Below the pieces are notes generated by a model, which was not told where the DNA came from, made no database searches, and saw only the letters and a list, made by a program, of their open reading frames with translations. Shown in pieces: positions 1-54,064 of a stretch of 64,000 bases of DNA. Each line of letters opens with the position of its first letter. The stretch's first letter is position 1. This DNA is from Amoebophrya sp. A120 (Eukaryota; Protista; Dinoflagellata). The position numbers were made by a program, and so were the translations under genes. The stretch spans positions 1,879 through 65,878 of the forward strand of contig CAJINV010000035.1 in the NCBI GenBank assembly GCA_905178155.1. The letters are read 5' to 3'.

Positions 1-86
1 TCTCCACAGACGTTTTCACGCCAAAAATTCAGCGGCTCAGCAACCTCTTGCTTCAAGCTGTGTCTGGCCTGGGACTGCATGATCTT

Positions 87-3000
87 CTACCGCATAGCTG
101 CATCTGGCTCTTCGGGTTTCCCACAGAAAAGTACGCCGCTACCAGAAAAGGATCAAATTTATGTTGCCCAGTTACCAGCACTGCATCAACAAAAGTCTGC
201 AAAAATGCGGAGACCGCAAGAGACACACTGCTTTGTCGTGGAGAAAATATATCCAGCTTTTTGCTGCACTACGGCAGGCGAGGGGTTAGAGATGTAAGCG
301 AAAAAGTTTGTCATGTCGAACAGCCCAGGCGACGCTCCTTTTTTACTCAAGTGCCAATAGCCTGATCTTTTTTTCTGGCATGGGTGTGCCTTTTGTGTAA
401 GATATGCGGGAGCAAAAACTCCTGCTGCTGCGGTCCTGCTTGGGCGGGTGGAGCGGGAGGTGCAGCGGGGTCGCGAAACGGCAGTCTCTGTTGCTTATTC
501 AAATTCGTCCTCTTCATCTATGAGGGTGCGCAACTACTCCGCCTTCCAGCAATGACATAAACAGCAGCAAAAGCCTAAGCCCCACCAAGAACAGTACAGG
601 CTTTGCATGACCATGAGTCAAATCGACACAAGGCTTTTTTTGCTAGTGGGGATTCCAAAGTAGCACCTCCGATTTGGTACTGATTTTGCATGACAAATAA
701 GTTGGTGCAGGAGGGGCGGTTACGCACTCTCATATCATTGTGCCGGGGAAGTAAAAATTCTGGTTCTCTTCGTCCTGGTCAGTATGGATTGCAAATATGT
801 CTGGGGTTCTTCGAATAGTGAAAGACCTGCCAAGCTGATCTGCCATGCTCCTGATCTACTCTGGTATGCACATTGCTGTGTAAAAATAGCTGGAGACAGG
901 TGGTCCTTTGTCATGCAAAAACGTGCCAGCTTTTGGTGCATCTACGCACTGGACACTGCGTTACCGCTCCAACAGCTACATAAAAAATAACTCTGGACTC
1001 AGTGATATTAGTCATTCACACGAACTGCACTCGTTGCACGACTACTTTTCCCGAGGACTCCGACATGTTTGCACTAGGTAGTCGGACTCCTGCCACCACC
1101 CCTCGTACACCGATTCGGCATCATCGTCGACCGCGCCTCCCTCCTCCTCGGGCACTGCCACCGCGTCGACCGGTGCTGGGGCGCCTGCTATGGAGTTCTC
1201 ACACGTGTTGACAGTGTCAGCCGTGACATCACGACGAGCAATTTGTGCTGTGAGAATGGCAAAAGTGTCGAAAAAGTCTGCTCGTCTTGAGCCTACAAAT
1301 TCAAATTTGACCAACGGATAATTATACTTGTCTCCACGCCGGGACTGAGCAGCGCTGCGAGAATTTGAATTTGTCATGCGAATAAATAGCTTGATGGTCG
1401 TGTTGTTGAGTGATGGCAATTTTGCATCAGTGCAAATCATGTACCGCGTGAGAACTCCATAGCTGCGACATCGCTGTTCTCATGGACGCTATCTTCGCGC
1501 TCACCGTCTTCTTGCTCCACACCATCCTGTATGCATTGCAAATATGTCTGGGCGGTCGGGAAAGTTCGAACTTGTCGTGCCCAGTTTCTATTCCTGTGAA
1601 CAATCTGTATTGCATGACCAACATAATAAACTCGTAGCCTCCTGTTTTATCGTACGAAGCCGCACCTTCATCTGCGGACTGCGTATGACAAAGGCAAACC
1701 GTTCTGCAAGCTCGTCATGCTCGACTTCTGCATGCGGGAAGGGGTGCTGTTTATCATCCGCAATTCAGCATCACATCTTTCCCGACGCAGACATATTTGC
1801 AGTCCTTATCCTGTTCCGCGCTCTGCTCGAACTCCGACATTTCGTAGAAGTATGAAAGTGCGCAACCCCACCTCTTCCCCGGCATCTGTAATGCAAAATA
1901 CAAACCCCACATGTTGACAACTTTAAGCATTGTCTGCATGAGAAATTTTGGAACCTAACACAGTACTAGAATCCGTTTGCAGATTTGTCATGCGGAACAA
2001 GTCCCTTTTTCACTCTTATTGTGTGTGCTGCTGTTGATACATGCTACACAAATGAGAAGAAGGAAGAGTTGTGCACTCTCATACGAAGTTGTCGTTCATT
2101 ACGAGTGGACCGTCCTCCAAGACTTGCTCCGTCTCTTCGTGTATCAACTGCAACTATGCCTGGATCTGAAAGATATAGTGAACGTCTGTAATGCACATTT
2201 TTCATGACCGATTATAATGCCTGTGATGATATACAACCTAGCACCACAGATTTTCGTCTTATTTTGAGGGCTTCTCACCAAATGCCTATTCCGCATGAGA
2301 ACAAATGCCCATAACTCCTCGCAGCTAGTATAAGCGACTGGACTCCTGTTTTCTTGCTGCTCATGCAATACAGATTCTGTTTAGCATCCGAAACGCGCAT
2401 CACAAGTTGCAGGCGTCCAGACCTAGACAAAATTGCGACGCATATCCTCGTCGTCCTCGTCTTCCTCGTCCAACACGTTCCGTTTTTTCATGGCTATGGC
2501 TTGATCAATTGCTACAGTCTCAAGCGCTACAATCGCAATTTCGATTTTGTGTTGCGTGAGCAGAGCATGACCAACGTAGTACACAATCTTGGCCGTTAAC
2601 GTTATTTCACCGGGGATTATGAATTCACAGGGGGGCGGCAGCTAGGGAGCTTGTCATGCGCAAATCCTCCGTCGAAGCACGCTAGATGATTATGCACTTT
2701 CTGCATGTTATACAGATTTCTGCTTGCAGCTTTCCGCTTCTGTTGTAACGCTTGAGACTGCAGAGTACACCTGAGCAGGTCATATTCTTCTTCTTCTTTT
2801 TCTTCTTAGTCCTCGGCCAGCCCGCCCACACTTTCTGGTTGCGCTCGTGGAGCAGCTGCCCGTATTTCGCAGCCTGCTTTTTCTCCTCTGTTATCATGAG
2901 CAAAAGTCCCCCCTCCCCATAGTGAAGCAATCTGCTTCATCCCCTGAAGATAGAAACGCGGCTCTGATTTGATGTGGCCACCACTCGCGACGGTCTTGCA

Positions 3001-6000
3001 ACAAGGCAAATGCGCGAGAGCCGAGTAAGGATCTGCCTGGTGATGTGTTGCTGTTGGTCGCAAGCTGCAATACCGACGCGACCTATGGGGCACGCACATC
3101 CCCCCGTGGCACAGATTTCTATCGGAGCAGAGGGAGGCAGAGGGGGGGAGATTTCTCCTGATATCCGTGTCGTTTTTCAGGTTTGCCGGAGCATCCCCCA
3201 GGTGCGGGCGGAGGTAGATCGTGTCCTCTTCCGCTGTTCCCCAGCAGAACTTGTCCCGCCATTGCTGTTTCGACAGCGCGGCCAGCTTGTCGCTGAAGAG
3301 CAACTTCTTCTCTGGGTCCAGATCATTGAGCATCTGTTTCGTGCAGTGCGGAACGAGGTGGCGGTCTGCTGCGGGAGCGGCCGGCCCAGCACCGTTACGA
3401 TCGCTGTCGGATGAGCCTATCCTGTGGAAAAACGTCCCAGCCCCAGAATCAAGATGGAGAATTTGCAAGACAAATCAGCAAGCTTTGGCTGTTGGGCATG
3501 ACAAGTTTGGCCTCGTAGAAGTGTAATCCTGTTATAGCTATTTCAGCAGCATCACAGATTTAGCACATGATGCTGATTGGAGCATGACAAATTCCGAGAC
3601 GCAACTAGAAAATGCTTCTCATGGGGCTCAGCACAAGAGACATTCTCACCCTGCGAATTCGCATGACAACTCTGGGCTGGGGACGTTTTTCCACGGGATA
3701 GCGTCGTCGCTTGGTTCATCTTGTCGCCCCAGTATACCGCGGAGAATTTCTTTCTTGTGCAGCGAAATGTTGACAGAGCCACTGCAGGTCGGCGCCGCAA
3801 AGACGGCAAAGGTGGACCTTCCTGTGCTCGCGAAAATCGCATGGTCCTTCCTGTTGGTGTCGTCGAATATGCATAGTGCAAATATGTCCTCTGGGTCTCC
3901 TGGAAAGATGTAGCTCGTCATGATGAGAAGTCTCGATGATCATAGAAAAAAAAATTGTGTTTCATCTCCAAGAGCTAATGTCCTGTTGCTGGTAAGGAGT
4001 AAGTGGGGTTCTCATGCGGAATAAGCATCAAGCAGGCCGCACAAAATGAATCTGTGGTGCTCCCTCTGTGAGCATCAGCATTCCAGATCACCTGCGTGGT
4101 CTGCGAGAAGATGCATGACAAATTTCATCCAGGCCGACCCGGACATTTTTGCATTTGATATGGAGAAATGGCTCTGCCTCCCAGTCAAATACACCGGCCG
4201 CTGCTTTTCGTGTCCCGTCGGGAAGTACGAGGACCACGACCAGGCTGGACGTCTTCAGGTACGCTGCTTTGGGGTGTTTGCGCACCGTTCCGGGAACCGT
4301 CGGAAAAGTGGACCAGTACTGCAGAATCGCGTCCGAGAGCATCCCGTCGAGGTTATGACCTGCTCAAACGTTACAATCTCAAACGTTACAATAGAATTTG
4401 GAAATCTGTGATGCAAGAAGTGCATGATCTAGCCAACTCTCATAGGATTGCGCATGACAAGTTCTGGAGTCCCAATCCGCACTACAATCTGGCGAAATTT
4501 GTATTGCAGAAAGTGGAATGCTGTCCGACTCTGTCATGTTCATCATGCAAGACGAAATCCAGATTCTATTGTAACGTTTGAGATTGTAACGTTTGAACAG
4601 GTCATAGAGGTTCGCGATACTTTCTCCGTTCACCAGCAGGGGGTTTGCGTCGTCAGCTATGCCCGCCGGAACCAGGGTTTCGATGGTTTTATCGCTCGCC
4701 GGGGACACCTTGAACACGCAGAGCTTCGCGGCCACCGAATCTTCCGGGCGTATATCAAAGGAAAATACGTGTCGGTCTGGAAGCTTGTGACGCTGGGTGG
4801 AGGCGATAATGATTGACCCTGCCAAGCAGAAGCATGACAAATTTTTACAACACTTCCCAATGCGTGATGCGCATTTGAGACAAGTAGAAATGCGTTTTTG
4901 CATCACAACGCCGTTCTTTGTTGGTCATGCAATATGAAAGATTTATTTACAACTCCAGATGGTGCAGCGGCATCACTTTTCAAGACCTAGACACATTTGC
5001 AGTCGATAGTCCAAAGCGTCGTACCACCGCAAAATTTATGCATTGCAAATATGTCTTCAAGATCTGGATTTGACATGCAAGATTTCGAGGCCAACAGCAT
5101 GATCTGAATCTGTGACGCATGATAAATACATCAAGTCATAGGCTTTTTCGTCGTGCTACAACCCAATTTGTCATGCGTTTCAGGAATGTCTTCGAGCACA
5201 GACATATGTGCACTTCGTAACACCTGCTCCCGCATCGCAGTAATCGGCATGATGTCGCTGATATGCACTGCAAACATATTTGGGTCCTCTGGAAATTTCT
5301 GATGCTCAAATGTGCATGATGACAACACTGCCTTGTTATGCAGGAAAACATGACAGAGACAAGTTTGCAGAACGCCCTCTCATACGGACTTCGCATGAGG
5401 GAGTGCGTTTTTGCATAAGAAAGGAAGCTGCTCGCTTGCAGCACATGCAAGACAGATTTTCCGGGAATGCAAGACAAGCATGACGAGCTCCACCTTTCCA
5501 GACCCGGACACCTCTGCATGTGATAGTTGACCACGTGGAAATCTTCATCCGCCATCACGTCGGTAACGTCGAGGTATCCTGAAGAAACACGTCCCGACCC
5601 CAAAATTGTCACGCAGACTCGCATCTGCTGTACTTGCACTTCCAAAGCGGCACTCGCATTTATGCACACTTCCAGGATGCAAGACATCATCTGTAGTCGT
5701 GGTCTGAGTAACTTGTCAAGATAAGGAAGCGGCTTTGCTGTGCTGCTCTCCTCGCAGGCCTGCACGACTGCACAAAATCCCGCCGAGCTACCTTCTGGAT
5801 TTGTGTTGGAGAGTGCAGCCCAGCCGGTTGGCTAGGAGGTGGGGATGTTTTTCCTCAGGGTAGCCGCCGCTCGTTCAATATGCGGGGGATGCTCTGGGCC
5901 ATGTCCGCGATTTCGATGCCGGTCGTGCCAAAGAGCGCGACGGCTGTGGCGAGCGTGAAGGAATCGCGCCCCGAGTGGTCTGTGCCGCCCGTACACGCGT

Positions 6001-9000
6001 CCCCCGCCGTCACGGGTACCGCGGCGATGTGCTCGCCTTCGTTACGTTGCAGCAGCGCAACGAGCGTCCCCGCCCTTCTGTTTGCCCGCGGAATCGAATG
6101 CTGTTGCAACCCCGGCTGGAGCCACGGCGGGAAGTTGGTCCATGGGTTCAGAAGATTGTTCTGGTCGTACTTCACTTCCAGGAAATGCAAGTTTTTGCGA
6201 TTGGTCAAAAAATTCATATCGATGCGCCGCCCGTCATATCGAATGCAAATGTGTCTGGGTAGCGGTCTGGGAAGCTGCAGGAGTCTGTCATGCAGCTTTT
6301 CCACTGTCAGTGAGCTCGGCAATGCGGAGCGTAGCATCACAAGATCTGAGACCTACCCCCTCCTGCATGTTGGGGACGCCCGCTCAACATAAAACGAAAG
6401 TGGGTAGCTTTTGGTAGAAATTCTTCATGCAATCGCAACTAGACATACACAAATTTGTGATAGATCTAAGGACAAGCCGCATCACAAGTTTGCACGTTCC
6501 CCGACCCAGATACATTTTTTGCAGCGAGTATCTTCACCACCTCCACTGTCGGAATCGACGGTCCTGGAAACTCGTGGTATCGACCAGAAAAGTACACCCA
6601 TATTTTCAGATGAAGAAACTCTTCCTCTGATCAAGAATCGATCTCCGACAGTGCATACATCCGCTTTATTGCTGCATGACAGGTCTCCGCCGCTCTGGCG
6701 GATCACCATCACAGAGGAAGGCTCCACGTTGCGCCAGCAGTGACAGCTGTGAAAGTTTCTTTCTCTTCTGGTAATATGGGCGTGCTTTGTTTTATCTCTC
6801 GGATACGTAACCGTCTTGGGGCGTTCGCAGGAGGTCGTGTGCAGCACCAGCGGGGTCCAAGTCCAGCACGGCGAGCCTGCCCTCCCCCATCTGTTGCAGC
6901 CAAGCCCAGACTATGCATCGCGAATATGTCTGGGGCTGGAAATTTCAATTTGTGATGCTAGTTTGCGGCGAACCATAAGCAGCCTACAATATAAGTAGAC
7001 ACGCGCATGACAAGCTTCTGAGCGACTTGGTCTTGCGTAGACTGCATGACAAACTGTTTTTTTTTTTATTTTGCATCACAAAAGCATAGCTTGCTGGTAG
7101 CGTAATACTATGCATGACAGATCTTTCTCTTTGTCTTTTGTCAGCAGAGCATATACAAATCTTGCGATCTTCCAGACCAGACATATTTGCACTTGATACA
7201 GATTTGCTGTTTCCAGGCGTTTATCGGAACCGGTGCAGTCGCGAAGGCCACTTTCCCCGCCTGGTTGACGGATTGCTGCGATTTCATTTGTTCCGTCAGG
7301 AGCTCCTGCCGTATCAGTTCCTTGTCCTCCTCGAGCTTCTCAGCCCTCTGCTCGAGCTGTGAGCGCTGCTCGTAGAGATTGTCATAAGCGTTACGCTTCG
7401 CTACCAGCTCGCCCTGCAGCCTTTCGTTCGCGGCGCTCATCGCGTCGTTCTCGGCTCTCCTCGCGAGCAACTGCGCTATTGTGAGAACAGTCTCTCTACC
7501 CCATACTCAAAAGCGAGTCTCGGAGTGCTGTTTTCGTGACGAACTAACTTTATTCTATTGCTTCTGGTAATGAATAGCGGGGTGAGGGTAGTCGACGTAT
7601 AATATTTACAAACAGAGGAAGGGGTGCAGCGGTCGTCAAGAATTACTTATGTTCCTCATGCTCGGAACCATAAAAACGTATACTCATATATACGAACAAC
7701 TTTGTCGACAGAAATAGAAATTCGAGGGCCCTGCTGTAGGTAACACCCGGGCACGACCATTATTTGCGTTTATACAAATCAACACCACAGCTTCTGGCCC
7801 TCGTTTTGAGTATGGGGCGGGGAGATCCTCATTGCCATACCGGCTTCCTGCTGTTCGTTGCGGGTTGTGAGCTGCGCCACCTGCTGTACTAAATCTGCAG
7901 CGGCCTCGTGGTCCGGTTCCGCGATGATGTTGTAGAGCTGCGCCGTTTATCAAATGCAGAAGTGTCTGAGTCTGGAAACTTGTGATGCTGGGTGGCGTAT
8001 CATGATGAGGCCGCAAGTGCTGGCCCAGCATGACAAGTTTGTGAGCTTCTAGGTGTTGCCTATTGTCCATGACGAACTGCGTTTCTGCATGCCAGAAAAA
8101 TAAAGCTCTTGGGCAACGTGCGTGACAGATTCAAGAGTCATGCCAGACAAGCATGACAAACATGCATTCTTCCAGACCCAGACACTTTTGCACTTGATAC
8201 CATTGTGCTCGCGAAGAACGTTATCTCGGGCACCGACGAGGACAGTGGGTACGTCTCCGACAACGCCGGGGATGATGCGCCCGAGTGCACAAAGGTAAAT
8301 GTTGCCGCTTCGCTTTCCGGGACCAGCAGTTTTGCCACGTGCTTCACGGAGCCGTGCCGGTGTCGGAGGACCGCGATAACGGTGGTCTGGCCGGCTAGTC
8401 GCAAGAAGTTCTTGCCGGCTCGTTCCAAGTAGTACGTGAGCTTCTGCTTTATCATTTCTTCCGGCGCCGCGTCCTTCACGAGGTCCGGGTTGTTCTGCAA
8501 TCGTCCGTATGCATTGCAAAAGTAAAAGCATCGTACTAGTTCTAGTATGAATTGCATTACAAATTACCTAAGCAAGACAAATGAAATTCGTCATGCTAAA
8601 TTACCTTGGGATGGAGATTTGTAATGCATAATTGCAATGACTACGAATGCGATACTTTTGCACAGGATAGTTCGAGACGCGGGCAGTCAGGATTTTCTGG
8701 GTGGAAGCGATAGTCTGACGCCAGGTCCTGAATCTTCTTCACGTCCAACAGCGGAACCTTCTTAGGCTCCGCCGGCGGGTCCCCGGGCATGGGGTTTTCT
8801 CCTTCTGGCCACGTGAGGAGGTCGCACACCTCTCCGCGGGAGTTGCTGACTTGCAGCATGACGAGCATGATGTCGAGGTTCCAGTCCCACTTTGCCTCCG
8901 CGTTTGCGGCCTTGATCGAATTCCACGAGCGCAGCGTCTCCACCCTCAACTCCTCTACCCAACTATGCTGTGCAAAAGCATCGCACTCGTAGTAATCGCA

Positions 9001-9287
9001 GTCATGCATTACAAATCTCCATCGCCATCCCAAGGTAAAAGAGCATGACAAATTCCATTTGTGACGCTGAGCTAATTTGTATTGCAAGTACTACTAGTAC
9101 GATACTTTTGCAGTTCGTACCAACGACGGAGCTGTAATTCAAAAGCGCGGGCAGCTGGCAGAGTAGACGACCCGAACTGGTCCACGGCCTCGGCCGGATG
9201 TAGGCGTAGCGCTGTTTTGCAGGTCGCGGAAGGAGCGGAAGCGGCGGGTCGCGGAACCGGCGCCACTTCTTCGTTTTCCTCTTCCAT
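87..9287 (-). CDS. Hypothetical protein (~1023 aa) split by 23 TIR introner introns
   Basis: Removing each element plus 5 nt (117-404, 519-734, 783-1080, 1189-1461, 1530-1808, 1851-2083, 2142-2444, 2495-2784, 2892-3163, 3418-3700, 3868-4160, 4354-4606, 4753-5008, 5037-5219, 5262-5525, 5575-5862, 6237-6530, 6578-6805, 6912-7198, 7477-7839, 7948-8199, 8508-8669, 8964-9119) gives one continuous 3072-nt ORF from ATG 9287 to TAG 87-89. It has a coiled-coil-like part (7200-7476) and an acidic C-terminal part. Start and last exon are less certain. Confidence 0.8.
1189..1461. mobile_element. Introner element, TATGGAGTTCTCA family
   Basis: Perfect 14-nt TIR tatggagttctcac; flanks cctgc/gctgc; frame restored by element+5. 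Confidence 0.85.
1530..1808. mobile_element. Introner element, family A (TGCAAATATGTCTGGG)
   Basis: TA termini, imperfect TIR, perfect 5-bp flanking repeat tcctg/tcctg. Confidence 0.85.
1851..2083. mobile_element. Introner element, TATGAGAGTGCACAAC family
   Basis: TIR tatgaaagtgcgcaac / tatgagagtgcacaac; flanks agaag/cgaag. Related copies at 519-734 and 41909-42117. Confidence 0.8.
3418..3700. mobile_element. Introner element, TATCC..GGAAAAACGTCCC family
   Basis: About 30-nt TIR; flanks gagcc/gcgtc. Related copies at 5575-5862 and 46601-46897. Confidence 0.8.
4354..4606. mobile_element. Introner element with 44-nt TIR
   Basis: TIR tatgacctg(c/t)tcaaacgttacaatctcaaacgttacaatagaat with 1 mismatch; perfect flanks gaggt/gaggt; removing 258 nt joins ESIANL to DGMLSDAIL. 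Confidence 0.92.
7948..8199. mobile_element. Introner element, family A
   Basis: TIR tatcaaatgcagaagtgtctgagtctggaa / ttccagacccagacacttttgcacttgata; flanks ccgtt/ccatt; closely similar to 28724-28975 and 34813-35064. Confidence 0.9.
8964..9119. mobile_element. Introner element, family B (TGCAAAAGTATCG, ~150-160 nt)
   Basis: TA termini, TIR, perfect flanks ccaac/ccaac. Same family at 8508-8669, 16229-16380, 21631-21783, 23505-23656, 27389-27538, 49188-49350, 51176-51324. Confidence 0.88.
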
Positions 9288-9308
9288 CGAAGACTTGCGA
9301 CGTTTTTG

Positions 9309-9600
9309 TATGCATTGCAAATATGTCCTCTGGGTCTAGAACAGATGCAACTTGTCATACAACTGCGGCTGCATCTTCCAAAAATCTGTGTTGCTGCCCG
9401 ATTGCCAAAAGTTGTCCACTTCTGACCAGGCACAGAGGCAGCCTCTCATGCAGGAGAGGCACAATAGAGATATCAGTCTCACACTCACAGAATCGGTCAT
9501 GCTGTTGGCCCGGCATGCGCATGCCAGACGCTCTGGGTCATGCAAGTTTTGCATGGCAAGTCGCCTCTTCCTCCAGACCCAAACGTATTTGCATTTGATA
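9309..9600. mobile_element. Introner-family A element upstream of (or in 5' UTR of) the first gene
   Basis: TA termini, family A TIR, flanks ttttg/ttctg. Confidence 0.8.
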
Positions 9601-9876
9601 TTCTGTACCGGGGAGCATCGAGGCCCCTCCCCCTCTGGATCTGTGTTGCGTTTTCGGTGAAGAATGAGGAATGAATGTCGAGACTAGTAGAAGTCCATGC
9701 GTTTTGCACAAAAGCTTCTCGCCATATTTCTGTGGCTAAGAAAAGGAAATCATGGCGCGCTTGCGTCTGGAACTGAAAGAAAGAACCCACATGCATGCGA
9801 GATGAGTAGAAGTAACTCGGAAGGCCAAAACTCACAAAACCATCTTGAGTACCTGCACCATCGACCGTGGGGCTAC

Positions 9877-11207: not shown

Positions 11208-14200
11208 CTACGCTCCCTTCTCCTCCTCCTCCTCCTTGCTAGCGCGGTAGAAGTTGTAAGCAAAGTTGTTGTTCTCCCGCAGGGTGTATGCATTGGAAAT
11301 TTGTTCTCGAAATCGGTAGAAATGAGATGAATGATCAGAACTTCCAGTGCTTGTTCTTTTGCATAGTGACGAAAGATTTACGCTTCGATTCTTTTTCTCT
11401 CCAGTTGAAGTTTGTCATGCGTCATTGCAGTATTAGGAAATCCTGATCAACCACGACATCAATGCAGCATCACAAATTCCCGTTTGTTCCCAACCAAGAC
11501 ATATTTGCGATTCATAGCACCTCTCTGCACTCCGCGAAGCGTCCGTGTGCCATCAATGTCGAAAACTCCGTCGCATCCTGTGAAAAAGTCAAAGTATCGC
11601 ACAACCTCTACTACTGGCATTAATCATGCATGACAAATCTTCCTCGTCTATCTGATCATTCTAGTTTCAATTTATTCGGACTTCATGTCTCATGCTGAAC
11701 AAACTTGCTCTTGCAATGCAGTTTATCGGTAGTAGTTTGGTTCTGGCACCCACTGTCGCACAGGATAGGAGTTTAGCAGAGACCAGTGGTCGGTGTTCAG
11801 GAGCTGCATGTGGTGTCTCCAGATGAAGAGCATCCGCCGCGCCTGGCTGGTCTTCGTCGGTTCATCCTCTCGCGCCTTCCCCGTCGAACTGCCTATCGCG
11901 GATTGGCTAGCAAAATCCGCTCCTTCCCGCACCGCAGCGGTACTGCTCTCGTCTTTCACGGCGGCCCAGAGCTGCGTGAACTCTTCGTACTTCGAATCGC
12001 GCACGTCGAACTGCGGGAGGAAAAACTCGCAGACGTCCTTCATCGCCCGTCTGTCGTCATCTTTGGCTACAGATTTCGCATCCGGTAGCTTCGTGTACTG
12101 TCTGAAGAGTTCCTCGAGCGCGATCTCCACTGGGTTGGGAGCAAAAAGTTTGTGGTAGTTGGAAACGCCGGACGGCTGCATTTGCTCGGAGTAAGAGCGC
12201 CCGGAGGTGGTCGGAAAGAAAACGAAATCGAAGTCAAGTATCTCCTCGAGGTCCAGGGTATGCAGCTCGTGCTTCTTGATCCACCCGGCAGCCCCTCCTG
12301 CGGTGGTTGGTTGCGCGGGGTTCAATCTTGCTTCCTGGTCGGACGAAGATGACTGCGTCTGCGGGGCGGGATTTGTATTGCTGCAGTACTCACCTTTCGT
12401 TTCCGCTGCGCCATCGCCGGAAAGAAGATCTACATTCATTCCGGTGCTATCTGCCGTAGCTGTAGCGGAAACTTCGTTGTTCTTGTTGACATCGTCCATC
12501 GTAATCAAATCCAAAAGAGCGACGAGCACTGGGCTCACACGCGCAACTCGTCGCTGCTGCAACAGTGGGCGGGGAATCTTCATTTTTGTTCTCCAGGATG
12601 CCATTTCCGAGTTTGCGCTTGTTGCCACTGCATCACTTCTTATGCCCTACAAAACCATGACGATGTCCCCGTCCCCCATGCCTTCGGGTTCGAATATAAT
12701 TTGTCTTGCATGAATACAAAGCATATGAGCACTGCCCATCTCTACCAAAAGTGTCGTGTTGGTAAGGGAGGAAGGAACAAAATTTTCAAAAGATTCGACG
12801 ATAATCTAGCACTCCACTTGGCGTCGACAGGCAGAGCTGCAGATGCAGCCTCATAATAATATTTTGCATTACAAAACGACTCTGCGTTTGCATCAAAAGT
12901 TTGAGAGGCGGTGGCGGGACCAGAACGAGCGTTCTTTTGTGATGGCATATCAACGTCGTCCGTGGTGCCTGTGAGTAGAGAAAGCTCCTTCAATTCCACA
13001 GGAGTGTAACAGACGTGTGCATCGCGAGGATCACGTGCAGCAGCGTTCGCCTTCGCACCGCCGGTCCTGTGCACAACCTTCTGGGGCAAGTCGCCAGCAC
13101 TCAGGAGAAACAGCTCCTTCTGGTAGCCGGGCAGTGGCAGGATGTTGGTGCTGTAATTCCAGCTGCTACAGGTCTTGTCGAAATGGCGCTTTCCCCACGA
13201 GAGTCGCCACGGGGCGTGGCCCAAAACGCGCGCAACGACGGCAAACGGTACTACTTTTGTTCGTATAAAAAACCACAGCTTGGCTCGAGATCGTCGCTTT
13301 TTAGCATCGGCGTCCAATCCTGGTGGATGATCATCTAATTGAGCAGGAAGCCAGGGAGTGACATACACCTCACGATCGCGATCTGGAGCTGGGTAGCCGC
13401 GGCCGCCGATGCGCACCAGGGTACGCGGGTCGAATGGAAGCAGAGACTTTCCTTGCAGCCGGTACTGCTGTGTATGCGTTATAAAAGCATCGTAAAAATT
13501 TTCGTACCACATTTTATCATGAAGAATTAGGTAAAATTGAATGTAATTCTCAAGCAGGTAAAAGCAAGCGAGCTATCTGTCATGCAAGACACTACAGTTA
13601 CGTACGAGTACGATACAACTTTTGCACAGCATATCTCGCGGCCTCGAACAAAGCCTCCCAGGGAAAGGCCGTCGCAGTTACATCCTCTTTTTCGAAAATA
13701 AACCAACGCTGGAGCAAATATTCCGCGCGTTCCGCATGGCCGAATCCGTAACCATTGCAGTAATGGGACCAGTTAAAGGCGTGGCAGTAGCTGTTCCACA
13801 TGAAGCGATCCTCGGGAACCCAAACTGGGTTTGGTGACGGAAGAAAGGCGCTGCTGTTTTTGGTACCTTTGGTCCAGACATCTGTCTCCACGATCGCGGA
13901 TGTGCGAAGACGCCATTTGCTCTCGCAGGTGAGACCAATCTCCTTGTTGTGCTTGGAATCGCCCGCTGCATTGTGGCAAGAGCCAGGTTCCTTTTTCGCG
14001 AATTCATTCTCCTCATCTGTGATGCTGCGCTGGGCTGCGGTCTCGCTGGTGTTGTTTTGCCGCTTGTTGCCATCTGACGGGTTCTTGTGACTACTTTTTC
14101 CGCTCGCTAGCTCCGCCACTAGGTTGACGATGCTCTCCGCTACTTTCTCCGAGTCGGCCAAACTCTGGCTCCACGGTAGTTGCTGCGTGCTGTCCCGGTT

Positions 14201-17200
14201 TACGAAGTCCACCCACGAGTTCAGCCGCTGATCCACATATGTGGCCGCGTCGTCGCAATCGTGCTGTTGATCTTGATTTCGTAACACTATATCAAGCGCG
14301 GTTCGGGAAATCTCGCGCTCCACCATACCAGTTTTATCCGCGGACCCCGGATTCCTATGATCTTCGGCGGGTGCGAAGGCGCGCCACTTGGCCGTGAACG
14401 GAGGCTCTAGGAGAAGCTGCATCATGAAGTGCCACTTTCCCGTCATTAGCATCAGCTGCTCTGGCGGGATGCTAGTGCTTCCGTCGGGACCTGTTCCTTC
14501 CATCTTGGTGCAGCGAAGGCTTGTAGTCGCGCGGCCTCCTCTTTCGTCGTAGGTATCTTCCAGGCGCGGGCGCGGACAGTGGCAGGTCATGCGCAGAAGA
14601 GTTTCCACTGCATGCACGATGTGCATCGGGCAATACCACAGCTCATTCCGATTTGCATCCAGCAAATCCGTGTCGCCGACGGCCGCGTAACACCGGCAGT
14701 CAAAGCATTCTACCAGTCGTACGGAAAGCGGAACGAGCAAGCGCGTGGCGAGCACTGCAGCGGTGTATGACACGAAATACTCCGGGTCGAAAGCCCCCGT
14801 GCGTCCGTCGACGCACAGGTAGCCAAAGCAGTTTTTCGGGGTCCGGGGGTCGGTGCGGTACAGGCGGTGGTGGCGATACTCCTCGTTGAAGAGCCACGCT
14901 GCAAATCGTGCGTTCACTTCTGCAGGGAGTCGTGCTTGCCATTGCTGCCACTCTGCCACATCCGCATCCGTAGGGTGGACGAAATCGGGCTCGTCGTCGT
15001 AGAAAAATAAGTCGTTGTCGTATGCATTGCAAATGTGTATCGGTGTGGAAAAGTGCGAACTTTGTCACGCTGTTTTTGTATGACCCAGCAGAGCTTCTGG
15101 CATGCAAGCTCTCGCCTCACTGATTGCGGAGCTTTCTCAATTATACTCATATCTCGAATATAAATATATAAACTCCAGGTCCAGACTTTGATGACAAGAA
15201 ACAAGCTACTTTTGCGGCCTTCTGTGCATGACAGATTTTTGTCTCGACTAGACCCATACGTATTCGCAATGCCTATGTCGGGGCGGAGTTGCAATTCACC
15301 ACAATCGATTGGAGGTCCGCTAGCTTGAAAGTTCGACCATCCATTGTAGGCGCCGGGCTTCAAGTATGCCAGTAGACAACTTCTACGCCCTTTCCTTTAC
15401 TTAGCAGAGCATGAACAGCAACAAGAACCAAGCCCTTGCTGTTCAGGTTGAAGTTTCCGCACGATGACATCAAATTTACACACATCAGATTGTAGTAATG
15501 TTTGTGAAGACGAAGAAGATCTCGAACTTTGTCACGCGGACCGTGGCAACAGATTGATATTCTGGTTAACCGAGCGGATATTAGTGGTGGTTTTCGCCCT
15601 GCAAATCTAGAAAGGGTGAGTTGTGGATTCTGATACCATGACGAACCACGACCCGGATTTGTCTGCCTCCGCCGTACCCGCCACAGCTCCCGGGAACTCC
15701 ACGGCCTTCGTTGTCACACGGATCGCGCAAATCTTTCTCCGTTGTCCCTGCTGCGCTGGTGCGGCGCAGGACGCTGCCGTATTTTGATTTTCAGTCTTCG
15801 CCACAGCCGGTTGGGACGCCGACGTTGCAGAAGCAGCACTAGACGTGGTTCCAGTAGCAGTTGGCACTAGCCGCAATGTCGAGCCAGACTCTGCGGCAGC
15901 GGAATAACCGACCGGCTCTGCGTGCTCCGTTTCGGTGGCGCTGTCCAACACGCCGGGGTGTGTTGGCGATGCGGAGTTGTTTTGTTCCGCACGGGCTCCG
16001 ACTGGAACACCAGCGGTTTCTCGGGTTGCTCCTGCAACTCCAGTCTGGAAAACAAGCGTACGACCCACCGACGACGCTGCGCCAGAGCTGCTGCTGTGGA
16101 AAGTAGACTTCGGCAGAAGAGATTCGTTTCCCGCTGGGACGGCGGCCTGCTTCCCGCGATTCTCTTCGCCAGAGCGAGATGGGGGTCCTCCAGCACAAAG
16201 TGCGTCAAGCCTGGTGCTCGGCACTGTCTATGAACTGCAAAAGTATCGCACTCGTATAAATGCATTACAAATTTCCTCAGCATGAGAAATAAAATTTGTA
16301 ATGCTGATTTACCTTAAGCAAAAGATTTGTAATGCAAGAATTGCACTTATACGAGTTGTACGATACTTTTGCACAGGATACTGTCGCGGTAGGGAAGAGA
16401 AGAAATTCCAGCATTTCCTTCTCGTCTATGGCGCTCTCAACTGTTGCATTCTCAACTGTATAATATGAATTTGTGATGCAAGAATGGCAACGGAGAAAAG
16501 GGTGACCTTGCACGTGTCGCATGACAGATTTGCGACAGATCCTCAGCCTCTTTGGCTCTTCTAGAATCTGTCATGCGAAGCAGCTTGATCACGTCGATTC
16601 TACTTCGTAAGTTTGCATGACAAATCATTGATAACAGTTGAAAATGTAACATTTGAGAACGCCATATCGTCTTCTACGAGTAATTCCACTGGTGCAAACG
16701 ACGGGGTCTTCGGGCTCCTCGATGGCCCGCTGCCGCTCTGCGCACTTTGCGGACTGCTCAACCGGGACATGCGCAGCGACAAATCGTCGATTGGGTGCTG
16801 GTCCTCCTGGAGACGCTGCAACTCCTCGCTGTTTTGCAGCTCCGGCTGCTCCACGACGCCCTCCATGGCTGTACTCGGTGACGCTTGTCAAAAAGAAAAA
16901 TTCCCCCTCCCCAAACTGAAAAGGTATATTTTTGGAAATTTGTGATGCTAATTTGTGGTCACAAATCGTGTCTGTCTTGCAAGAAGGCAACTCCGCAGGC
17001 TCCGCCGCTTTGTGCGGGCGGTTTCTCATGCTGTCGGGCCTACAGTGCGGACGTTTTTCATGCTAAGTGCCTAGGCCACAGCCTCTCCACTCACGCTTGG
17101 CATGGGCCTGCACTGCTCTCCAGCAAGACAGCTCCGATTTGTGTACACAATTCCAGCATCACAAATTTCGTTTTGATATGGGGAGGACGGATTTTTCCTT

Positions 17201-18059
17201 TCGATAACGCTTCCGGCGTGTTCTGTGCGCTCTCCGGCACACGCCAAATCTGCAGCATGGACGCCGGAATTGTCGGAAAAAACATGAAGTATCGCACTTC
17301 TAGTTCTAGTAGCCATCTAGTGATCATGCATGACACATCTCCTTTCTGTAGCTACATCAGCATTGCACAAAATTCATCTCGTTTTCTTCATTATGCCAAG
17401 AAACAAGTTTGTAGATGCATACTTAAAAAGTCCTCGTACTAGTCGCGCAACAATACTTATCACGAGAAAAAAGTGTTACAGTTACACATTTGTTGGAGTT
17501 TCTGCATCACAAATTTTCTCTGTGTACCAAAGAAAACTTCTAATGCGAAGAGCAGAAGGGAAAACAGGAAGGAAACGAGGCTCGCAAGCATTTCCTGCAT
17601 GAGAAACGTTGTCTGTGTTGCCGGTCTTGCAACACAATGTGTAACTGTAACACTTTTTTCTTGCGATAATACTTCTGCACAGATGAATAGCCGGCGCGAT
17701 CCGTTTGGCGAAGTGAATCATGAGGAGTCTTTATGCAATACAAATTTTCCGCACAGTGTGTACAAAACGCATCACAAATTTCGCAAAGAACTTAGAGGAA
17801 GCAACTCGTCATGCTGATGCTGAGCAAAAGGTTTGAAGGAAAAATCAAAATTTGTCATGCGGAAGGAACATTTGTACGTCGTGTACAGAAAATTTCCTGT
17901 GGATAGTCTTTCCTTGAAGTGCTTGGCGGTGACTTTCAGTACCAATTTCCCATCCTCATCACGGTACAGGCTGCCCGCCAGCGGTGGTTTTTGTAGTTCC
18001 GTAAAAGGCAGCTCGACGAAATCCTCGTCACCGCTGAGACCGTGGCGGAAACGAAGCAT
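11208..18059 (-). CDS. Hypothetical protein (~1369 aa) with 11 introner introns
   Basis: Element+5 removal at 11287-11516, 11574-11725, 12641-12949, 13473-13633, 15021-15275, 15365-15635, 16229-16380, 16427-16666, 16886-17206, 17268-17689 and 17732-17905 joins the track ORFs into one 4110-nt ORF (ATG 18059, TAG 11208-11210). No recognised domain. Confidence 0.78.
15021..15275. mobile_element. Introner element, family A-like
   Basis: TA termini, perfect flanks tgtcg/tgtcg. Confidence 0.85.
16427..16666. mobile_element. Introner element, TATGGCGTTCTCAACTGTT family
   Basis: Long TIR with internal tandem ttctcaactgt; perfect flanks tcgtc/tcgtc. Related copies at 28416-28662 (acccc/acccc) and 33003-33238 (gaggg/gaggg). 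Confidence 0.88.
16886..17206. mobile_element. Introner element, ~320-nt family with GAAAAA..CCCC ends
   Basis: Perfect flanks acgct/acgct; left end is a TG variant. Related copies at 27028-27348 (catat/catat), 40965-41287, 51360-51632 (cccga/cccga) and 2892-3163. Confidence 0.82.
17458..17668. mobile_element. Introner element nested inside another introner (17268-17689)
   Basis: TIR tatcacgagaaaaaagtgttacagttacacatt / aatgtgtaactgtaacacttttttcttgcgata; perfect flanks atact/atact inside the outer element's right TIR. Same family at 30164-30372 and 50595-50803. Confidence 0.88.
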
Positions 18060-20357: not shown

Positions 20358-23300
20358 TCACTCGACCAACTTCAACGACCACAGTGCTTTATTTTTGAAC
20401 TCGCCAGTACAATTCGATGCAGGAGACGTCGTCGCACCTCCCCCACCAACGACCTCAATCAACGAGTTTTTCGTCGGTTTTGCGACTAATCTCACTTGCT
20501 CGCCGATACTCAGTTTGGACAAAATTTCGCTTGTCGTTTCCAAACTCTCCACCGTCCCCGCTTTCGTGTGGCGGAGTTGGGGGAGGAAAAACTCCACTTT
20601 GCTCGTGGTGGTGGTCGGAACAGCAGGCGCCATAGTTTCGTCGACTTCAGACTCTGGACAAGAACCTTCGGCGAGTCGTGTTGAGATAGTCGTGGTGGAA
20701 CGACCTTGTCGGTCATCCCCGTCTTGAGACGAGCAGCTGCCACTGTCTTCAGTTCCATTACCATTTCCCAGCACCGCCGGATTGTTCATTGACGCCATGG
20801 CGGCTGGTGCGCCACCCATTTTTTGCCCGCCATCAGCTGTCGAAACTGACGGAACAGGCGTTGTAGGGGCAGTGCTACTACCAGAGCAGATCGCGGCGGG
20901 TGTAGAAGTCGTGGTAAGATCAGGACTCGCATACCTCGTCGACGCATGTATTTTCCACACCACTCCGACAAGCTCCACTCCTCTCTCGGGCAACGGTTGC
21001 CTTCGCAAGAATTCCGCGAAATACCACAATCGGCAGTCCGCCGCGGCGTCGTCCTGCCGGCGGCTGTAGTCGGTGCATCGGGCGGTGATCTGCTGCAGGT
21101 CCGACCACTCAGATTCGGAGATCGCTGGAGGTCGCGTCGACCTATTTTGTGCTGCGTTCACTTCTGTATCCTCCGCAGCTGCAGGTCGTGCGACTGCTTT
21201 CTCATACTCGTACTCATTTCCCACTGCTCTCGCCAGCATCCTATGTACGATGATATCTGCGTAGCGGCGGATTGGGGAGGTGAAATGTAAATACCCCTCA
21301 AGGTTCAGGCCCCAGTGGAAAGTAGTAGCAGTGGAAGACGTAGATGATGACGAACAAGACGCAGTGCTTGTGTTTTTGTCAGCCTGATGGTCTACAACTT
21401 CCGCTACGTGCTGATCCTGATCAGCATTCTGTATCGTGGTTTCCTCGTCGCCATCCACCATCTTATACTCCGCTTTTTCCAGTGCCTGCAACGCACTAAA
21501 AGTCACACTCTCGGCGAGGCTTGTGGGTAGGTGGGTTTGGGCAAATTGAAGAATTTCTTCCACCGTGGGCTGAGGATTGTTTGTGTCGGTGGCGTTTTGA
21601 CAACCATCATAGTTGGACCCACTGGTACTGTATGAAATGCAAAAGAATCGTAGTACTAGTATATATCGCATGACAAATTTCCCCAGCATGAGAAATAAAG
21701 TTTGTAGTGCGGATTTAACTTGAGAAAGAAATTTGTATTGCATGACTGCGATTACTACGAGTACGATACTTTTGCACGGAATATGCTACCACCTGTGTTC
21801 CCCCCGTCGATCGAAACGCCAGTGAGAAAATGCTGGATTTTCTGCTTCATCGTCATGGTTTCGGCCGTGCATTGAGGTGCATTTTTAGTACCCGCTTCTG
21901 ATGCAGCTTCCTCTCTGGTGCTGGTAGTGTTGGTTTCCGCAGCGCTTCTGCTGGCAACATGTCTACCATCTTTCCCCTTCGCTACCAAGTCGTGCAAAAA
22001 CAGCAACAGCTGCTTCCGAATCTGGTTACTGGTGTCCGGATGGATCCGCTGCATGGTTTTGTGCTGATAAGCTTGCAGCAATTTCTTCGCGACAACATGA
22101 TTCGCCAGCACCATCAGCTCCTCGATAATTCGGTGCGAGTCGAAGTAGAAGGGTCGTTTGTCATGCTGGTTTTCCACTGAATGCGCTGTCTTACCAGTAC
22201 TGTCCTTCGTGCCGTTACTCACAAATTCAAACCTCGTTGGCCAGCCCGTCTCCTGGTCAAATTCCATGACAACCTCGTCACTGGCGTTGCCAAAATTCAG
22301 GGTCAATCCGCCGGACTGCAATCTCTGCTCCCGACGTGATTTCGTCACGATTGCCAGGTGCTGCAGGATCTCCTTCGGAGTGGTTGGGAGGAGGCGCTTT
22401 TTGAAGGTAGATGTTGCGCTGGTTGTAGTGTTGCGCTTGTCCTTGTTCGCTGCGGTTTTCGCATGACAAATTTCTTCTGGCTCAGCTGTAGTGGCAGCAG
22501 CAATCTCCTTCTCCTTCACCAGCATGACAGATTCCCTCGGCACTGGAAAAACGCCGTCGTGCGAGTCGTTGAGCAAACACTCGTTGACACTGTCGTAGTC
22601 CATCCGGGCTGCCGGGCGGATCAGTGTGCGGTGGAACTTTGTCATGCTGGGAACGGTATTGCCGCTGGGTTTGTCATGCGTTGCTCCATCATGTTCATGG
22701 TCGTAAGCTCCTTCTTCTTGTTCTCCAATGATCTTCCCGGTCTCCGGATCCAGGGAGACGAAAACCGAAAAGCAGTTCTTCTCCCTAGGAACAGCAGGAT
22801 CGACAACGTCGCTGGTCGTGCGATTTCTCCCACTAGGCTCCACATCCGTCGCATCCAATGAGCAGCACCGCTCCGAAAGAGCTCGCGGCAGCATCGGGTA
22901 AACCCAATTTGGAAGATAAACCGTGGTCGTTCGGCTTTTCGCGACCTCGTCACACAGTGACCCGGGCCGGACGTAGTGCGCGACATCCGCAATGTGGATG
23001 CCAACTTGGAGGATTTTCTTCTTGATGCTTTCTGTAGAAGTAGTGGTTGGCGCAGCGCTTTTTATTGCCGATGAACTATCCGCCGTGCAGCTTCGTTCTC
23101 TAGCAGGGCCACTGCTACTCGAAGGAAATGCTGATGTCCCTTTTGTCGCCCGGATCCCCTCCCGCTTGTACACCTTCTCCCACCACTCCGCCTGGTCGTC
23201 CAGTGAATCGAAAATCTGCACGGAGATTGCGTCATCCAAATCTTTCGCGGTCGTTGGATCGATGGAGAAAACGTACAAATCGTTTGTCAAATCCACTCTG

Positions 23301-26298
23301 GGGATCACATCCGTCAACGGCTTATGATTTTTCGTATCATCCGTCAATTCCAAAGCCTCCTCCTCGCACTCCCTGCTGTGCGGCAACGGATCCATTTTGT
23401 ACCAAGCGAGAATCGCGTCCTGTTCCGCTTTGGGCGTGTTGGAGCGGCCTAAATCGTAGAGAAACTGCCCTCGGGGGAGAAATTCATCGTGCTTCCAGTT
23501 TTCGTATGAACTGCAAAAATATCGCGGTCGTATTGAAATGCATTACAAATTTTCTATGCATGAGAAGTAACATTTGTAATGCGGATTGACCTTAAGAAAA
23601 GGATTTGTAATGCATGATTGCAATACGAGTATCAGATACTACTTTTGCACAGGATACCTCGAAGCCGGCGACAACGACGTGACCGACCAGCGTCGACTCG
23701 ATGTCTGCGTCCTCGTAGCGATTTTTACTGGTCGTGTGGTTCTGTGCCCTTGCAGTCTTGGACGAGTTCTTGCCCGGGACGGCGGTCTTTTTGGTGCTGC
23801 TAGTACCTGTGGTTTTGCAAAACGGCACCACGTTCTTTGGGAGCGATAGTACACGAGAACTCGTAGCGTCGTGGGCATTTCGGGAGCCGGGGTCTTCCGG
23901 ATCTGTCTTCATCAGTTTCTCAAAGGATTCTGGCAGTCTTCTCGGGAGCGTCCACGCGGGGAGCCGCTGGTCCCGGGGCTGGAACTTCATCGTTTTGTCC
24001 GTTTCCGCGACGATTGTCCCGACTACTTTGCTATGCTGAGGAAAAATGGCCTTCGAGAGGACCTCAGTTTGTCATGCGCGACAGGCAGAAATACGTGTCT
24101 TGTGGTCGAAGTCGTAGCGCTTGCTACAGAAGAGAACCGTGCTGGTTGTAATTACACTAGATGAGGAACAGCCCTACGCATGGCTTGCCACTAGTGCCGG
24201 CAACCGCAGGGACCAGTTTAGCAAGAAGCCGCCTTTGCGACAGGTTGCGAACGCGACTGCGAGTCACGTATTCTTCTGGCATAATATGCATTACAAACTG
24301 TGTCCGAGAGGAGATTTTTCGCCAAGATATTTGTGCTTCTCGAATCGTTCCCTGATCGCGACGATGCGGGCAAATTTCGTTGTCGATGTACTTGCTTTTA
24401 TTCCGGGTTGTGAAGCTGCGCCATCGTCTGGCACAGTTGCGTTGGCGGACCCAGCTGCAAGATCATTCGCGGCTGAATCTTTTTCCGTCACTTCCGCCAC
24501 ACCATCCGTTGCGTCATCTCCTTTCATCGTCGCTTCTGCGGGGCCTTGCATCGGAGCCGGAGGGGTCGTCGATGATACAGTTCCTGGAGGTGTCGGTGGA
24601 AGCGCTGGTGGATCGGGGACGACAGATGCCTGCTTGCTTGGTGCTACCTGAAGACCTGCCGGATCGCAACTCGACGCAGTTTGTTCCACACGCACTGTCG
24701 AGCAGGTCGCTCCCTCGTCTTTCGACGATGTTGGAGCTGCTGTGGCACCCTGTGCAGGTCCTCGCCGCGTCGCAGGAGGCGACGCAGATGAAATAGGCGG
24801 GAGGGATGGATGCGAAGGTTTCGCTGGCTGCTCTACTGGATTTGCGTGTGCAGGAGCTGTTCCCTCCCCACCACTCCATTTCGGCACGCCGGGAAAAAGC
24901 AGTGTTGGATCCTCTTGCAAACCCGCAAGAACATTTTTCAGCTTCTTCCGGATCTCTAGCTCGACGTTGTTCCAGTCGAACTTACCAGAATACGGTAAAA
25001 TCAGCACTTTGTCGCTGCTATGCACGGCAAAAGCATAAGGATAAGCATCGCATCTTCCCACAAGTCGCAATCTTGCATGACAGATCCGCTTCTCCTTCTT
25101 CGTCATCGTCTCGCTTCTCTCCAATTCGCATGACAAATTCTATTTTCTTTGCTGAAACAACTTGTCATGCTGCAACGTATGCTGGTATCTATGATGCTTT
25201 TATGCACTTGTTTTGCAGAGCATAACTGCTCATCGCCCGGTTCCGGGCCATAAAGCCGGGGATGAGAAATCTCCCGTGCTGCTCCGTTTCCACATAGCAG
25301 GATTCGGTATGAAACGCAGGGATTTTCATGGTGCCGGACAGCAGTATTTCGTGCTTCTCGAGTAGAGCGAGGAGTTCGGGTGGTAAAGCGTTGTCGACCA
25401 AGGTCGTTCTTGTATGATCTGTGCCCGAGGTACTAGTGGTGACATTCTCGCAGCTTTTTGGTATGGCCATCGCTCCGTCGCCGGCCTTAGAGTTGGAAAC
25501 CGAACCTGTCGTGTCGGCAACTTCCGCGGTTTCCTTGCTGCATGCAGGGACTAAATTCCAGTGTGGATCAAAACAGGGACGAGCTGCTGATGCCGCACTT
25601 GCACTGGAGCTATCATCGCGAATCTTCCACTGTGAATTCGTTCCAGAGACCAGGCGCTTGTCTGAGGTATAACGTGGTGATGTTAAAGATGTAGATGAGG
25701 CGGAGCTGGTAGAGGTTTTCATCTTGACGTCATTGGTACCTCTGCCGAGTGGTGAACAACCGCCAGCGCTGTCTACTGCCGCAGTATCCTGCGGCGGTGC
25801 AGGAACTACGCTGTTTGTCGGCGGAGGCGGTGGTACGAACTTACACTTTCTCTTCGCAGCAGCTGGAGTAGCAGCAGCAGCGGCCGCTGTCGATTGCAAA
25901 AATCGAACGTCCATTGCTGTGGCAGCAGAGGCTGCAGTTGAGCCGCTCTTTTTCGTGGTGTTATCCGAAGGTGGTCGCGCCGCCCCCACACGAGGACCAG
26001 CACTGGGATGTTGAACATAATTCCGAGGGCGATTCAGAATCGCTGCGGTCTTCTGCGTCGGGTTCATCTGGGGAGTAGTAGTTGTTTTCCGCGTGACTGC
26101 CTTCGACTTCGGCATCGAAGGCGCAGAAGTTGTTCTTACCGGTGGAGCAGCTGCGCCAGCCGCTGTCTTGCTGGATGGCAGAGTTGTACATGTGGAAGTG
26201 ATCGTCGAGAATGAGCATGAGAACTTTGCCGGTGAACAAAGTGCCGGGCCAGGCCCACCCACAAGCGCGGTCTTTATCCGCTGCAGAAGGAGCCTCAT
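20358..26298 (-). CDS. DIS3L2: RNase II/RNB family 3'-5' exoribonuclease, DIS3L2-like (~1703 aa)
   Basis: Motifs NRAMSSDKV (CSD1), FQPRDQRLP, SIDPTTAKDLDDAIS (catalytic Asp), GIHIADVAHYV, SHRIIEELMVLAN and YLHFTSPIRRYADIIVHRML. No PIN domain seen. Four introners (21631-21783, 23505-23656, 24032-24329, 25019-25224), all in frame with element+5. Subfamily assignment is inference. Confidence 0.88.
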
Positions 26299-47410: not shown

Positions 47411-47863
47411 TCTACTTGCGGGTTCGCCTGGGGTGGGATTTTGGTTGGAGGGCCATGGATAGTCGACAACAGTGAATTGTCTAGACTCGATCGAAGCTGG
47501 ACATGAGAGTCGTGTAGAAATATTATTTTTTCCGCATGAATAAAAAAATCATGTACCTGAAGATCCTTCTCCCCCGCCTTGATCCGAATCATCCGAGAGA
47601 ACGAGGGGCTCCATACAGGAAAAATGCGGGTGCTGGCGTTCCTGTGACGTTTATGCAATGCAAATTTTAATTTTCCGGCGGGATGGGGAAATTTGTTATG
47701 CTAAGTTGTGAAGAGGGATTGTCAACAAGCACTTCGTAATAAGCATGAAAAAATGTGATGTCGCATGACGAAAAGAGTCTCTGTCAGAGACGGACCTGCT
47801 CTTGAGTATGGTCTAGTTGAGTACGCCAGGAATGCGAGACCACACCAGCACGCCCACGCTGCA

Positions 47864-53800: not shown

Positions 53801-54064
53801 AACTTGCATTTGTAGTTACGCATGACAAGTGTTCACAGCTGCGCTCTCTGAAGCGGAGTACGCATGACAAATCGCCTTTTTGGATGACAAATGAGGCTGC
53901 CCTTTTGCTCGTCATGCAATACAGATTCTACAGCCTCATGCAAGACACGCAATACAAGTTGGACTCTTCCGGATCCACACATATTTGCATTTGATAGTTT
54001 CTGCCTTTTCTCGAAACACGCCGCCGCGGTTTTTACCAATAAGGTGTTCAACTTCTTCTTCGCG
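47864..54064 (-). CDS. One or more hypothetical genes with many introners; the most upstream exon is cut off by the large insertion at 54191
   Basis: TIR elements at 48111-48372, 48803-49079, 49188-49350, 49419-49686, 50595-50803, 50881-51169, 51176-51324, 51360-51632, 52266-52533, 52952-53216, 53431-53661 and 53745-53996. Joins in 52900-54064 verified in frame (VPEEIERQIY|EFLPEP, F-box-like pattern). Gene number not resolved. Confidence 0.5.

Follow-up and report, generated by a model that had tools for sequence, protein, structure and literature searches.

The window analysed here is a stretch of 64,000 nucleotides from the marine parasite Amoebophrya sp. A120 (contig CAJINV010000035.1, positions 1,879 to 65,878), with genes on the minus strand at 1-54000 and genes on the plus strand at 54500-64000. 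Concentrated in these genes, we catalogued 88 elements of 119-422 bp, located at 117-63828 and composed of TA..TA ends, terminal inverted repeats (TIRs) and a 5-bp flanking repeat. They are non-autonomous DNA transposons (introners) of Amoebophrya sp. A120, and the core of this system is already published. At two genes we found that the elements are removed together with five extra bases, one before the 5′ TA and four after the 3′ TA.

Ends and flanking repeats of the elements

When the window was scanned without prior bias for inverted ends flanked by a 5-bp repeat, 25 hits had at least 12 of 16 bases paired, and 19 of them began with the dinucleotide TA. Through a profile of those ends, 76 high-score elements were called in the window, against 1-5 per shuffle (5 shuffles). 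Flank identity of these 76 was 0.64 at 5 bp and 0.23-0.31 at the other lengths from 1 to 10, and the 5-bp repeat was perfect in 23. By hand, 85 calls were curated to 81 elements: 12 mis-paired, coding or intergenic noise calls were dropped, one was split in two, one re-bounded and seven added. Seven more elements were found later, and most counts below refer to the 81.

TA..TA ends were present in 74 of the 81, with rare TG and CA ends. The terminal repeat carries T-A-T at positions 1-3 and A in 65-75 of the 81 at positions 11-13, and in-register pairing of the ends is predicted in 75. The elements fall into families of 21, 8, 3, 2 and 2 members and 45 singletons, and sibling pairs occur in both orientations (51 vs 39). 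The original prediction, made from the letters alone, had described about 80 such TA-ended elements with TIRs, which agrees with our catalogue, and the 12 repeats it quoted are all present. Its general 5-bp direct repeat holds in part: the repeat is perfect in 24 of the 81 and matches at no more than 3/5 positions in 40, so it is full only in young copies. That most elements lack GT-AG was likewise correct, since a GT-AG cut with identical product is possible in 1/81 (42285-42459). The 5′ site showed T at +2 in 81/81, and the predicted 3′ sites comprised 16 types of dinucleotide.

Two further sequence features were observed in the elements. A GCATGACA-type motif of 8-9 bases occurred 168 times in the window against a shuffle mean of 4.7; 131 of these lie within elements, and the other 37 fall, among others, in intergenic DNA, exons and apparent GT-AG introns. 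Ends of the TATGCA type were commoner on the 3′ side of the transcript than on the 5′ side (window, 20 vs 6, p 0.009; loci of other contigs described below, 17 vs 8), which suggests an orientation preference.

Removal of the elements and register of the cut

Junctions were taken from the contigs of run X2, which is RNA by the guess of the tool; none of the listed runs is on record as RNA. For this run 15 joints of 36 were listed, composed of 11 short skips across elements and four joining distant repeat copies. X2 cover is absent from 18010-20000 and 54500-64000, the latter being without cover in X1 and X3 as well, and the junction evidence comes from minus-strand genes only. Raw-read runs X7-X9 gave 2-32 reads on 1-20000, all partial, and no junctions. 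The eleven elements with joints are:

117-404, minus strand, removed as 112-404 (+5), joint 111>405; 3′ end TTT-type, not TAT; repeat 3/5
519-734, minus strand, joint 513>735, +5; repeat 4/5
783-1080, minus strand, joint 777>1081, +5; repeat 4/5
1189-1461, minus strand, joint 1184>1463, +5; repeat 4/5
1530-1808, minus strand, joint 1523>1808, +5; repeat perfect
1851-2083, minus strand, joint 1846>2085, +5; repeat 4/5
2142-2444, minus strand, joint 2136>2445, +5; repeat 3/5
11287-11516, minus strand, joint 11280>11516, +5 despite repeat 1/5
11574-11767, minus strand, joint 11569>11769, +5; repeat 1/5; GT..AG on the plus strand, CT..AC in the transcript
12641-12949, minus strand, joint 12636>12951, +5; repeat 0/5; unique cut, 1 nt at the 5′ side and 4 nt at the 3′ side
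13473-13633, minus strand, joint 13468>13635, +5; repeat 1/5; unique cut 1+4

The removed length was the element plus 5 nt at 11/11 element joints among those listed, as the original prediction had expected, including four with repeats of 0-1/5. A GT-AG reading in the transcript direction is possible at 0/11. Read in that direction, a single split is compatible with every one of the 11 joints: 1 nt ahead of the 5′ TA and 4 nt past the 3′ TA. Two joints fix this register uniquely, 12636>12951 and 13468>13635, and if registers were random, the joints would share one with a probability of 0.0003. The mirror register 4 is excluded by only 7 of the 11 joints, and the cut polarity is the same at those 7. 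A fixed cut register, with the intron beginning one base ahead of the 5′ TA and extending four bases past the 3′ TA even when the direct repeat is decayed, is well supported at two genes. This split of the five bases, independent of repeat survival, had been missed in the original prediction.

The junction products lack TA, and the 5-bp repeat lies outside the TA. At the element ends 8199, 16229 and 16666 the match to reads and contigs of other copies breaks off, in keeping with a TA that moves along with the element. The original prediction had placed the elements in 87..54064, which was wrong at both sides: the first element is 117-404, and elements continue past 54064 to 63828. A start at 87 instead of 117 would keep the frame unchanged, and therefore frame alone cannot set the borders; the contig retains 1-111 as exon.

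Rebuilt protein and reading frames

The second of the two genes encodes a published protein, and its remaining elements were placed by protein match:

11211..18059, minus strand, gene identical to A120 model GSA120T00025627001; 1355 amino acids, no Pfam family, 11 element introns
15021-15275, 15365-15635, 16229-16380, 16427-16666, 16886-17206, 17268-17689 and 17732-17905, minus strand, elements, each +5 by match to protein P0020

The exon search gave a 1355-residue protein of Amoebophrya sp. A120 that is 100% identical over the query, and the protein of the window is identical to CAD7974831.1 at 1355/1355 residues. Because the window protein is identical to an A120 gene model, the window elements are the introners of Farhat 2021 (PMC7789003). 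Removing the 11 elements with 5 nt each rebuilds the 1355-residue protein exactly: register 1 gives no mismatch, and registers 0, 2, 3, 4 and 5 give 2, 2, 4, 7 and 8. Element 17458-17668 (perfect repeat) is nested in the older element 17268-17689 (also perfect repeat), and the outer one is removed +5 according to the protein match.

Compared with +4 and +6, removal with +5 scored best under the codon model for 62/81 elements, and for 53/61 at a margin of at least 3. Exceptions at this margin are 27028, 28416, 38799, 47652 and 54966, with 6237, 6912 and 15021 adjoining elements catalogued only later; 15021 is +5 in the protein. The longest frames in six regions were 455-1702 amino acids with +5, against 181-662 with +3, +4, +6 or +7. 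In the Dis3-like gene with an RNB domain (21631..25224), element removal opens 1699 codons, and Dis3 homologues align gap-free at the junction motif, an alignment that cannot tell registers apart. The motifs NRAMSSDKV, HGDQDTVI and FHGT appear after removal of element plus 5, as had been claimed. Among the gene labels given with them, Dis3 stands as a Dis3-like RNB domain, PARP has only weak support (E 0.006, which misses the Pfam threshold) and the hydrolase is unconfirmed.

Elements in other contigs

For comparison we used 129 loci (L001-L129) with the same element end from another public assembly, a set which is biased to young copies and may overlap. We called 334 elements in these loci against 6 in shuffles. 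The 5-bp repeat was perfect in 216/334, and 0/334 were perfect at 6 bp. Together with the 11 joints and the exact protein rebuild, this supports the proposal of a TA that is part of the element, of a 5-bp duplication and of removal without a scar. The 216 perfect target-site duplications (TSDs) comprised 169 distinct ones, of which 16 contain TA. TA..TA ends were found in 253/266 elements, +5 was best in 116 of 131 orientable ones, and T occupied +2 of the 5′ site in 114/116. Copies of window elements are up to 96% identical.

None of the 129 loci showed exon homology to the window. No element copy longer than 700 bp was found among the loci checked, and no transposase was seen. The viral collection gave no match to the element end.

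Other elements and features of the window

The remaining elements are listed below:

2495..9600, minus strand, 17 further elements of the first gene region, from sequence and frame only: 2495-2784, 2892-3163, 3418-3700, 3868-4160, 4354-4606, 4753-5008, 5037-5219, 5262-5525, 5575-5862, 6237-6530, 6578-6805, 6912-7198, 7477-7839, 7948-8199, 8508-8669, 8964-9119, 9309-9600
21631-21783, 23505-23656, 24032-24329, 25019-25224, minus strand, elements in the Dis3-like RNB-domain gene
27028-27348, 27389-27538, 27578-27829, 28416-28662, 28724-28975, 30164-30372, minus strand, elements, mostly perfect repeats
30570-30837, 31511-31774, 31908-32169, 33003-33238, 34490-34611, 34813-35064, minus strand, elements, mostly perfect repeats
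38799-39095, 39280-39539, 39585-39757, 39763-39997, 40059-40337, 40431-40553, minus strand, elements
40965-41287, 41367-41648, 41909-42117, 42285-42459 (sole GT-AG case), 42879-43184, 43259-43485, minus strand, elements
45333-45535, 46601-46897, 47652-47934, 48111-48372, 48803-49079, 49188-49350, 49419-49686, 50595-50803, minus strand, elements
50881-51169, 51176-51324, 51360-51632, 51811-52066, 52266-52533, 52952-53216, 53431-53661, 53745-53996, minus strand, elements
54966-55088, 57074-57233, 58034-58238 (doubtful), 59093-59214, 61920-62043, 62308-62430, 63445-63563, 63700-63828, plus strand, eight old short elements with decayed repeats

Frame favours +5 in 6/8 of the plus-strand elements. 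For 59093-59214 a GT-AG reading at element+8 is likewise in frame. At least six apparent GT-AG introns occur beside the old short elements in the plus-strand genes at 55366-60305, and in six plus-strand GT-AG introns the GCATGACA-type motif is sense-oriented, 11 vs 2. Protein searches gave nothing for the plus-strand genes, and a metagenome scan gave no relative for one of their exons; neither these results nor the missing cover of that region are evidence either way.

Two pairs of elements lie very close together. At 50881-51324 two elements are 6 nt apart, and by frame evidence only, the frame is open only if each is removed separately with +5, leaving a 1-nt exon; joint removal from the outer ends shifts the frame. 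At 39585-39997 two elements are 5 nt apart with three related 5-mers; under the 1+4 rule the exon between them would have 0 nt, and the frame stays open.

The stretches 9601-11286, 17906-21630, 33239-34489, 35065-38798 and 43486-45332, apparent intergenic DNA included, contain no catalogued element. A one-ended copy of the 150-bp family is at 54065-54190, and no matching second end was found for it. A 405-bp unit at 18609-19828 occurs in three tandem copies, 92% alike, without transcript-like cover. The GC-rich tandem array at 36163-37167 has units of 36, 90 and 108 bp and probably encodes a repetitive protein.

Proposed mechanism

We propose that TA..TA introners with a 5-bp duplication are removed as element plus 5 at 1+4, likely by a modified spliceosome measuring from the base of the terminal hairpin; we put the probability of this reading at roughly 0.6. 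Insertion would depend on a transposase of the integrase class (Ginger/IS3EU-like) that acts in trans. The terminal repeats may then pair in the pre-mRNA, bringing the two ends together, where the spliceosome would act. The 5′ site would be N-U-A, in which the U at +2 and the A at +3 of an ordinary GUA donor come from the TA of the element; U at +2 is the base that the spliceosome needs. The 3′ site would be set by the distance from the stem and not by AG. The splicing code is probably exon / N-TA[hairpin]TA-NNNN / exon, with no need of donor G, acceptor AG or direct repeat.

As 1+4 adds up to the length of the duplication, nearly every insertion, whichever its orientation, would be removed scar-free from the outset, and this would account for the invasion of exons. 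Under the rule, the 5′ sites are expected to be GT, AT, CT or TT and the 3′ sites arbitrary. Predicted N-T sites fit Table S4 of PMC7789003, in which 9/9 main A120 non-canonical motifs begin N-T; in strain A25, 9/9 main motifs begin TT and the repeat begins TTA.

Several points weigh against this proposal. The register comes from two minus-strand genes and one run of guessed RNA nature with joints listed only in part, and the published 1355-residue protein may derive from the same transcripts as the junctions. According to the Fig. 3 legend of PMC7789003, the position of the splice sites varies with respect to the hairpin. We found no GT or AG enrichment at the predicted sites and no drift of old flanks toward GT/AG. 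The GCATGACA-type motif is unsupported as a branch point, with sense vs antisense counts in elements of 74 vs 101 and 142 vs 210. TA deviations at the 5′ and 3′ ends were 0 vs 7 in the window (p 0.016), not replicated elsewhere (5 vs 4). A separate asymmetry, at position 3, was 12 vs 2 in the window (p 0.009) and 3 vs 0 in other contigs, in the same direction and not significant.

The same elements and the same 1+4 might instead be handled by a non-spliceosomal endonuclease and ligase reading the hairpin base, as suspected for euglenid introns, a possible explanation to which we give clearly less credence. It would suit the 16 types of 3′ dinucleotide, the unsupported branch point and the finding of no U1 snRNA (small nuclear RNA) in PMC7789003; moreover, Euglena has a comparable fixed-spacer code around a paired motif (PMC12501133), and its introns are released as circles (reviewed in PMC11282704). 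The retained T at +2 in 81/81 and 114/116, seen also in the published motifs of both strains, speaks for the spliceosome, weakly, as this T is also the transposon end.

Somewhat less probable still is that element plus 5 holds and the split varies by locus, 1+4 being merely the commonest. PMC7789003 reports inverted repeats 1-5 nt from splice sites, and in our data the mirror register is left open by some joints and the register is unique at only two. Against this, all 11 joints share one register and the protein is rebuilt exactly; borders mapped at perfect repeats are ambiguous, and this alone could produce the published spread.

Excision at the DNA level in some cells, like the TA-bounded internal eliminated sequences of ciliates, or X2 being DNA of a strain with empty sites, is very unlikely. 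X2 is only guessed as RNA and no canonical intron is among the joints listed, which would agree with it. However, the DNA-like run X5 passes through the plus-strand elements at 54500-64000 without joints, X5/X6 contain 93-94% of the words of 1-10000, the junction products lack TA, and the seven mirror-excluding joints are cut with one polarity. Over the 9.5 kb of 54500-64000, run X5 shows about 50 differences from the window and is therefore a close strain or haplotype; such runs could carry empty sites. Least likely of all are reverse-transcriptase template switches across the hairpin between direct repeats, which is the known setting of this artefact (PMC13149111), as four joints with repeats of 0-1/5 still skip +5 in one register, seven joints are located in one contig and the long reading frames need removal.

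Since 2021 it has been an open question how introns lacking consensus borders, tens of thousands of them, are removed in a eukaryote in which U1 snRNA is not detectable. If true, the 1+4 code explains the apparent chaos of splice dinucleotides in the A120 genome: the cut geometry of the transposase would match the splicing geometry of the host, so that each 5-bp-duplicating insertion would be silent at once and cost nothing, and exons of 0 and 1 nt would be expected between adjacent elements. A fixed register would also allow the borders of gene models to be corrected and would tell searches for lariats or circles which exact 5′ and 3′ ends to expect.

Comparison with known systems

With a size of 119-422 bp, non-coding sequence, TIRs and locus-specific TSDs, the elements are miniature inverted-repeat transposable elements (MITEs). 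They are not of the Tc1/mariner type with a TA target duplication, as the junction products are without TA and the 5-bp repeat is outside it. Nor are they U2-type spliceosomal introns by GT-AG borders, which occur in 1/81. IS3EU/GingerRoot elements have TA..TA termini, occasionally TG..CA, and a TSD usually of 6 bp (PMC10045372). The TA..TA ends are shared (74/81; 253/266), whereas the TSD here is 5 bp with 0/334 perfect at 6 bp, and we did not assign the elements to that group.

The introners of Micromonas and Aureococcus and the non-canonical introns of Fritillaria are derived from MITEs and removed with one TSD copy (PMC11282704; PMC9860276). Their borders are GT/GC-AG or AG-AC/AT motifs that either the element brings along or the target provides by co-option, whereas here neither terminal dinucleotide is fixed. 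The nonconventional introns of Euglena have paired ends with fixed unequal spacers, N3 at the 5′ side and N5-6 at the 3′ side (PMC12501133). The fixed unequal spacers are alike; the lineage, the motif (CDG/CHG vs TAT/ATA here) and the spacer lengths differ, and the Euglena code has been genetically tested, whereas the A120 register is read here from sequence and joints.

Gozashti 2025 (PMC12130899, supplementary file 8) describes A120 family 38 as 'Ginger; 5-bp TSD, TA/TA Termini' and gives a TSD of 5 also for families 19, 160, 183, 36 and 56. For most A120 families the entry there is 'Unknown', the TSD calls range over 2-6 and the 'carry/co-opt' labels are mixed; they are TIR DNA elements as here, and 40 of 58 A120 rows in that file show no common register. 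These entries, with the TAT start and 5-bp repeats of PMC7789003, anticipate the reading of TA as part of the TIR with a 5-bp duplication, which the original prediction had considered possibly new.

The nearest system is that of PMC7789003 itself. In A120 it reports inverted repeats that start with TAT, followed by 7 nt and AAA, a length of about 240 nt, direct repeats of 3-5 nt with a 5-bp example, and RNA-supported non-canonical intron borders. It also finds most spliceosomal proteins to be present. The window elements agree in the TAT-7nt-AAA terminal repeat, the absence from transcript-like contigs with non-canonical borders, the families and the A120 host. They agree also in the direct repeat, which here is 5 bp only and decayed (no more than 3/5) in 40/81. 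No statement of a fixed register was found in the literature searched; Figs 3, 4 and S19-S25 of Farhat 2021, bioRxiv supplements or subscription journals could hold one. The text and legends of PMC7789003 describe the border as variable or unknown, whereas in this window it keeps to 1+4 whatever the state of the direct repeat. The elements, the 5-bp duplication and the removal were already known, and the 1+4 register is what the present analysis adds to the published system.

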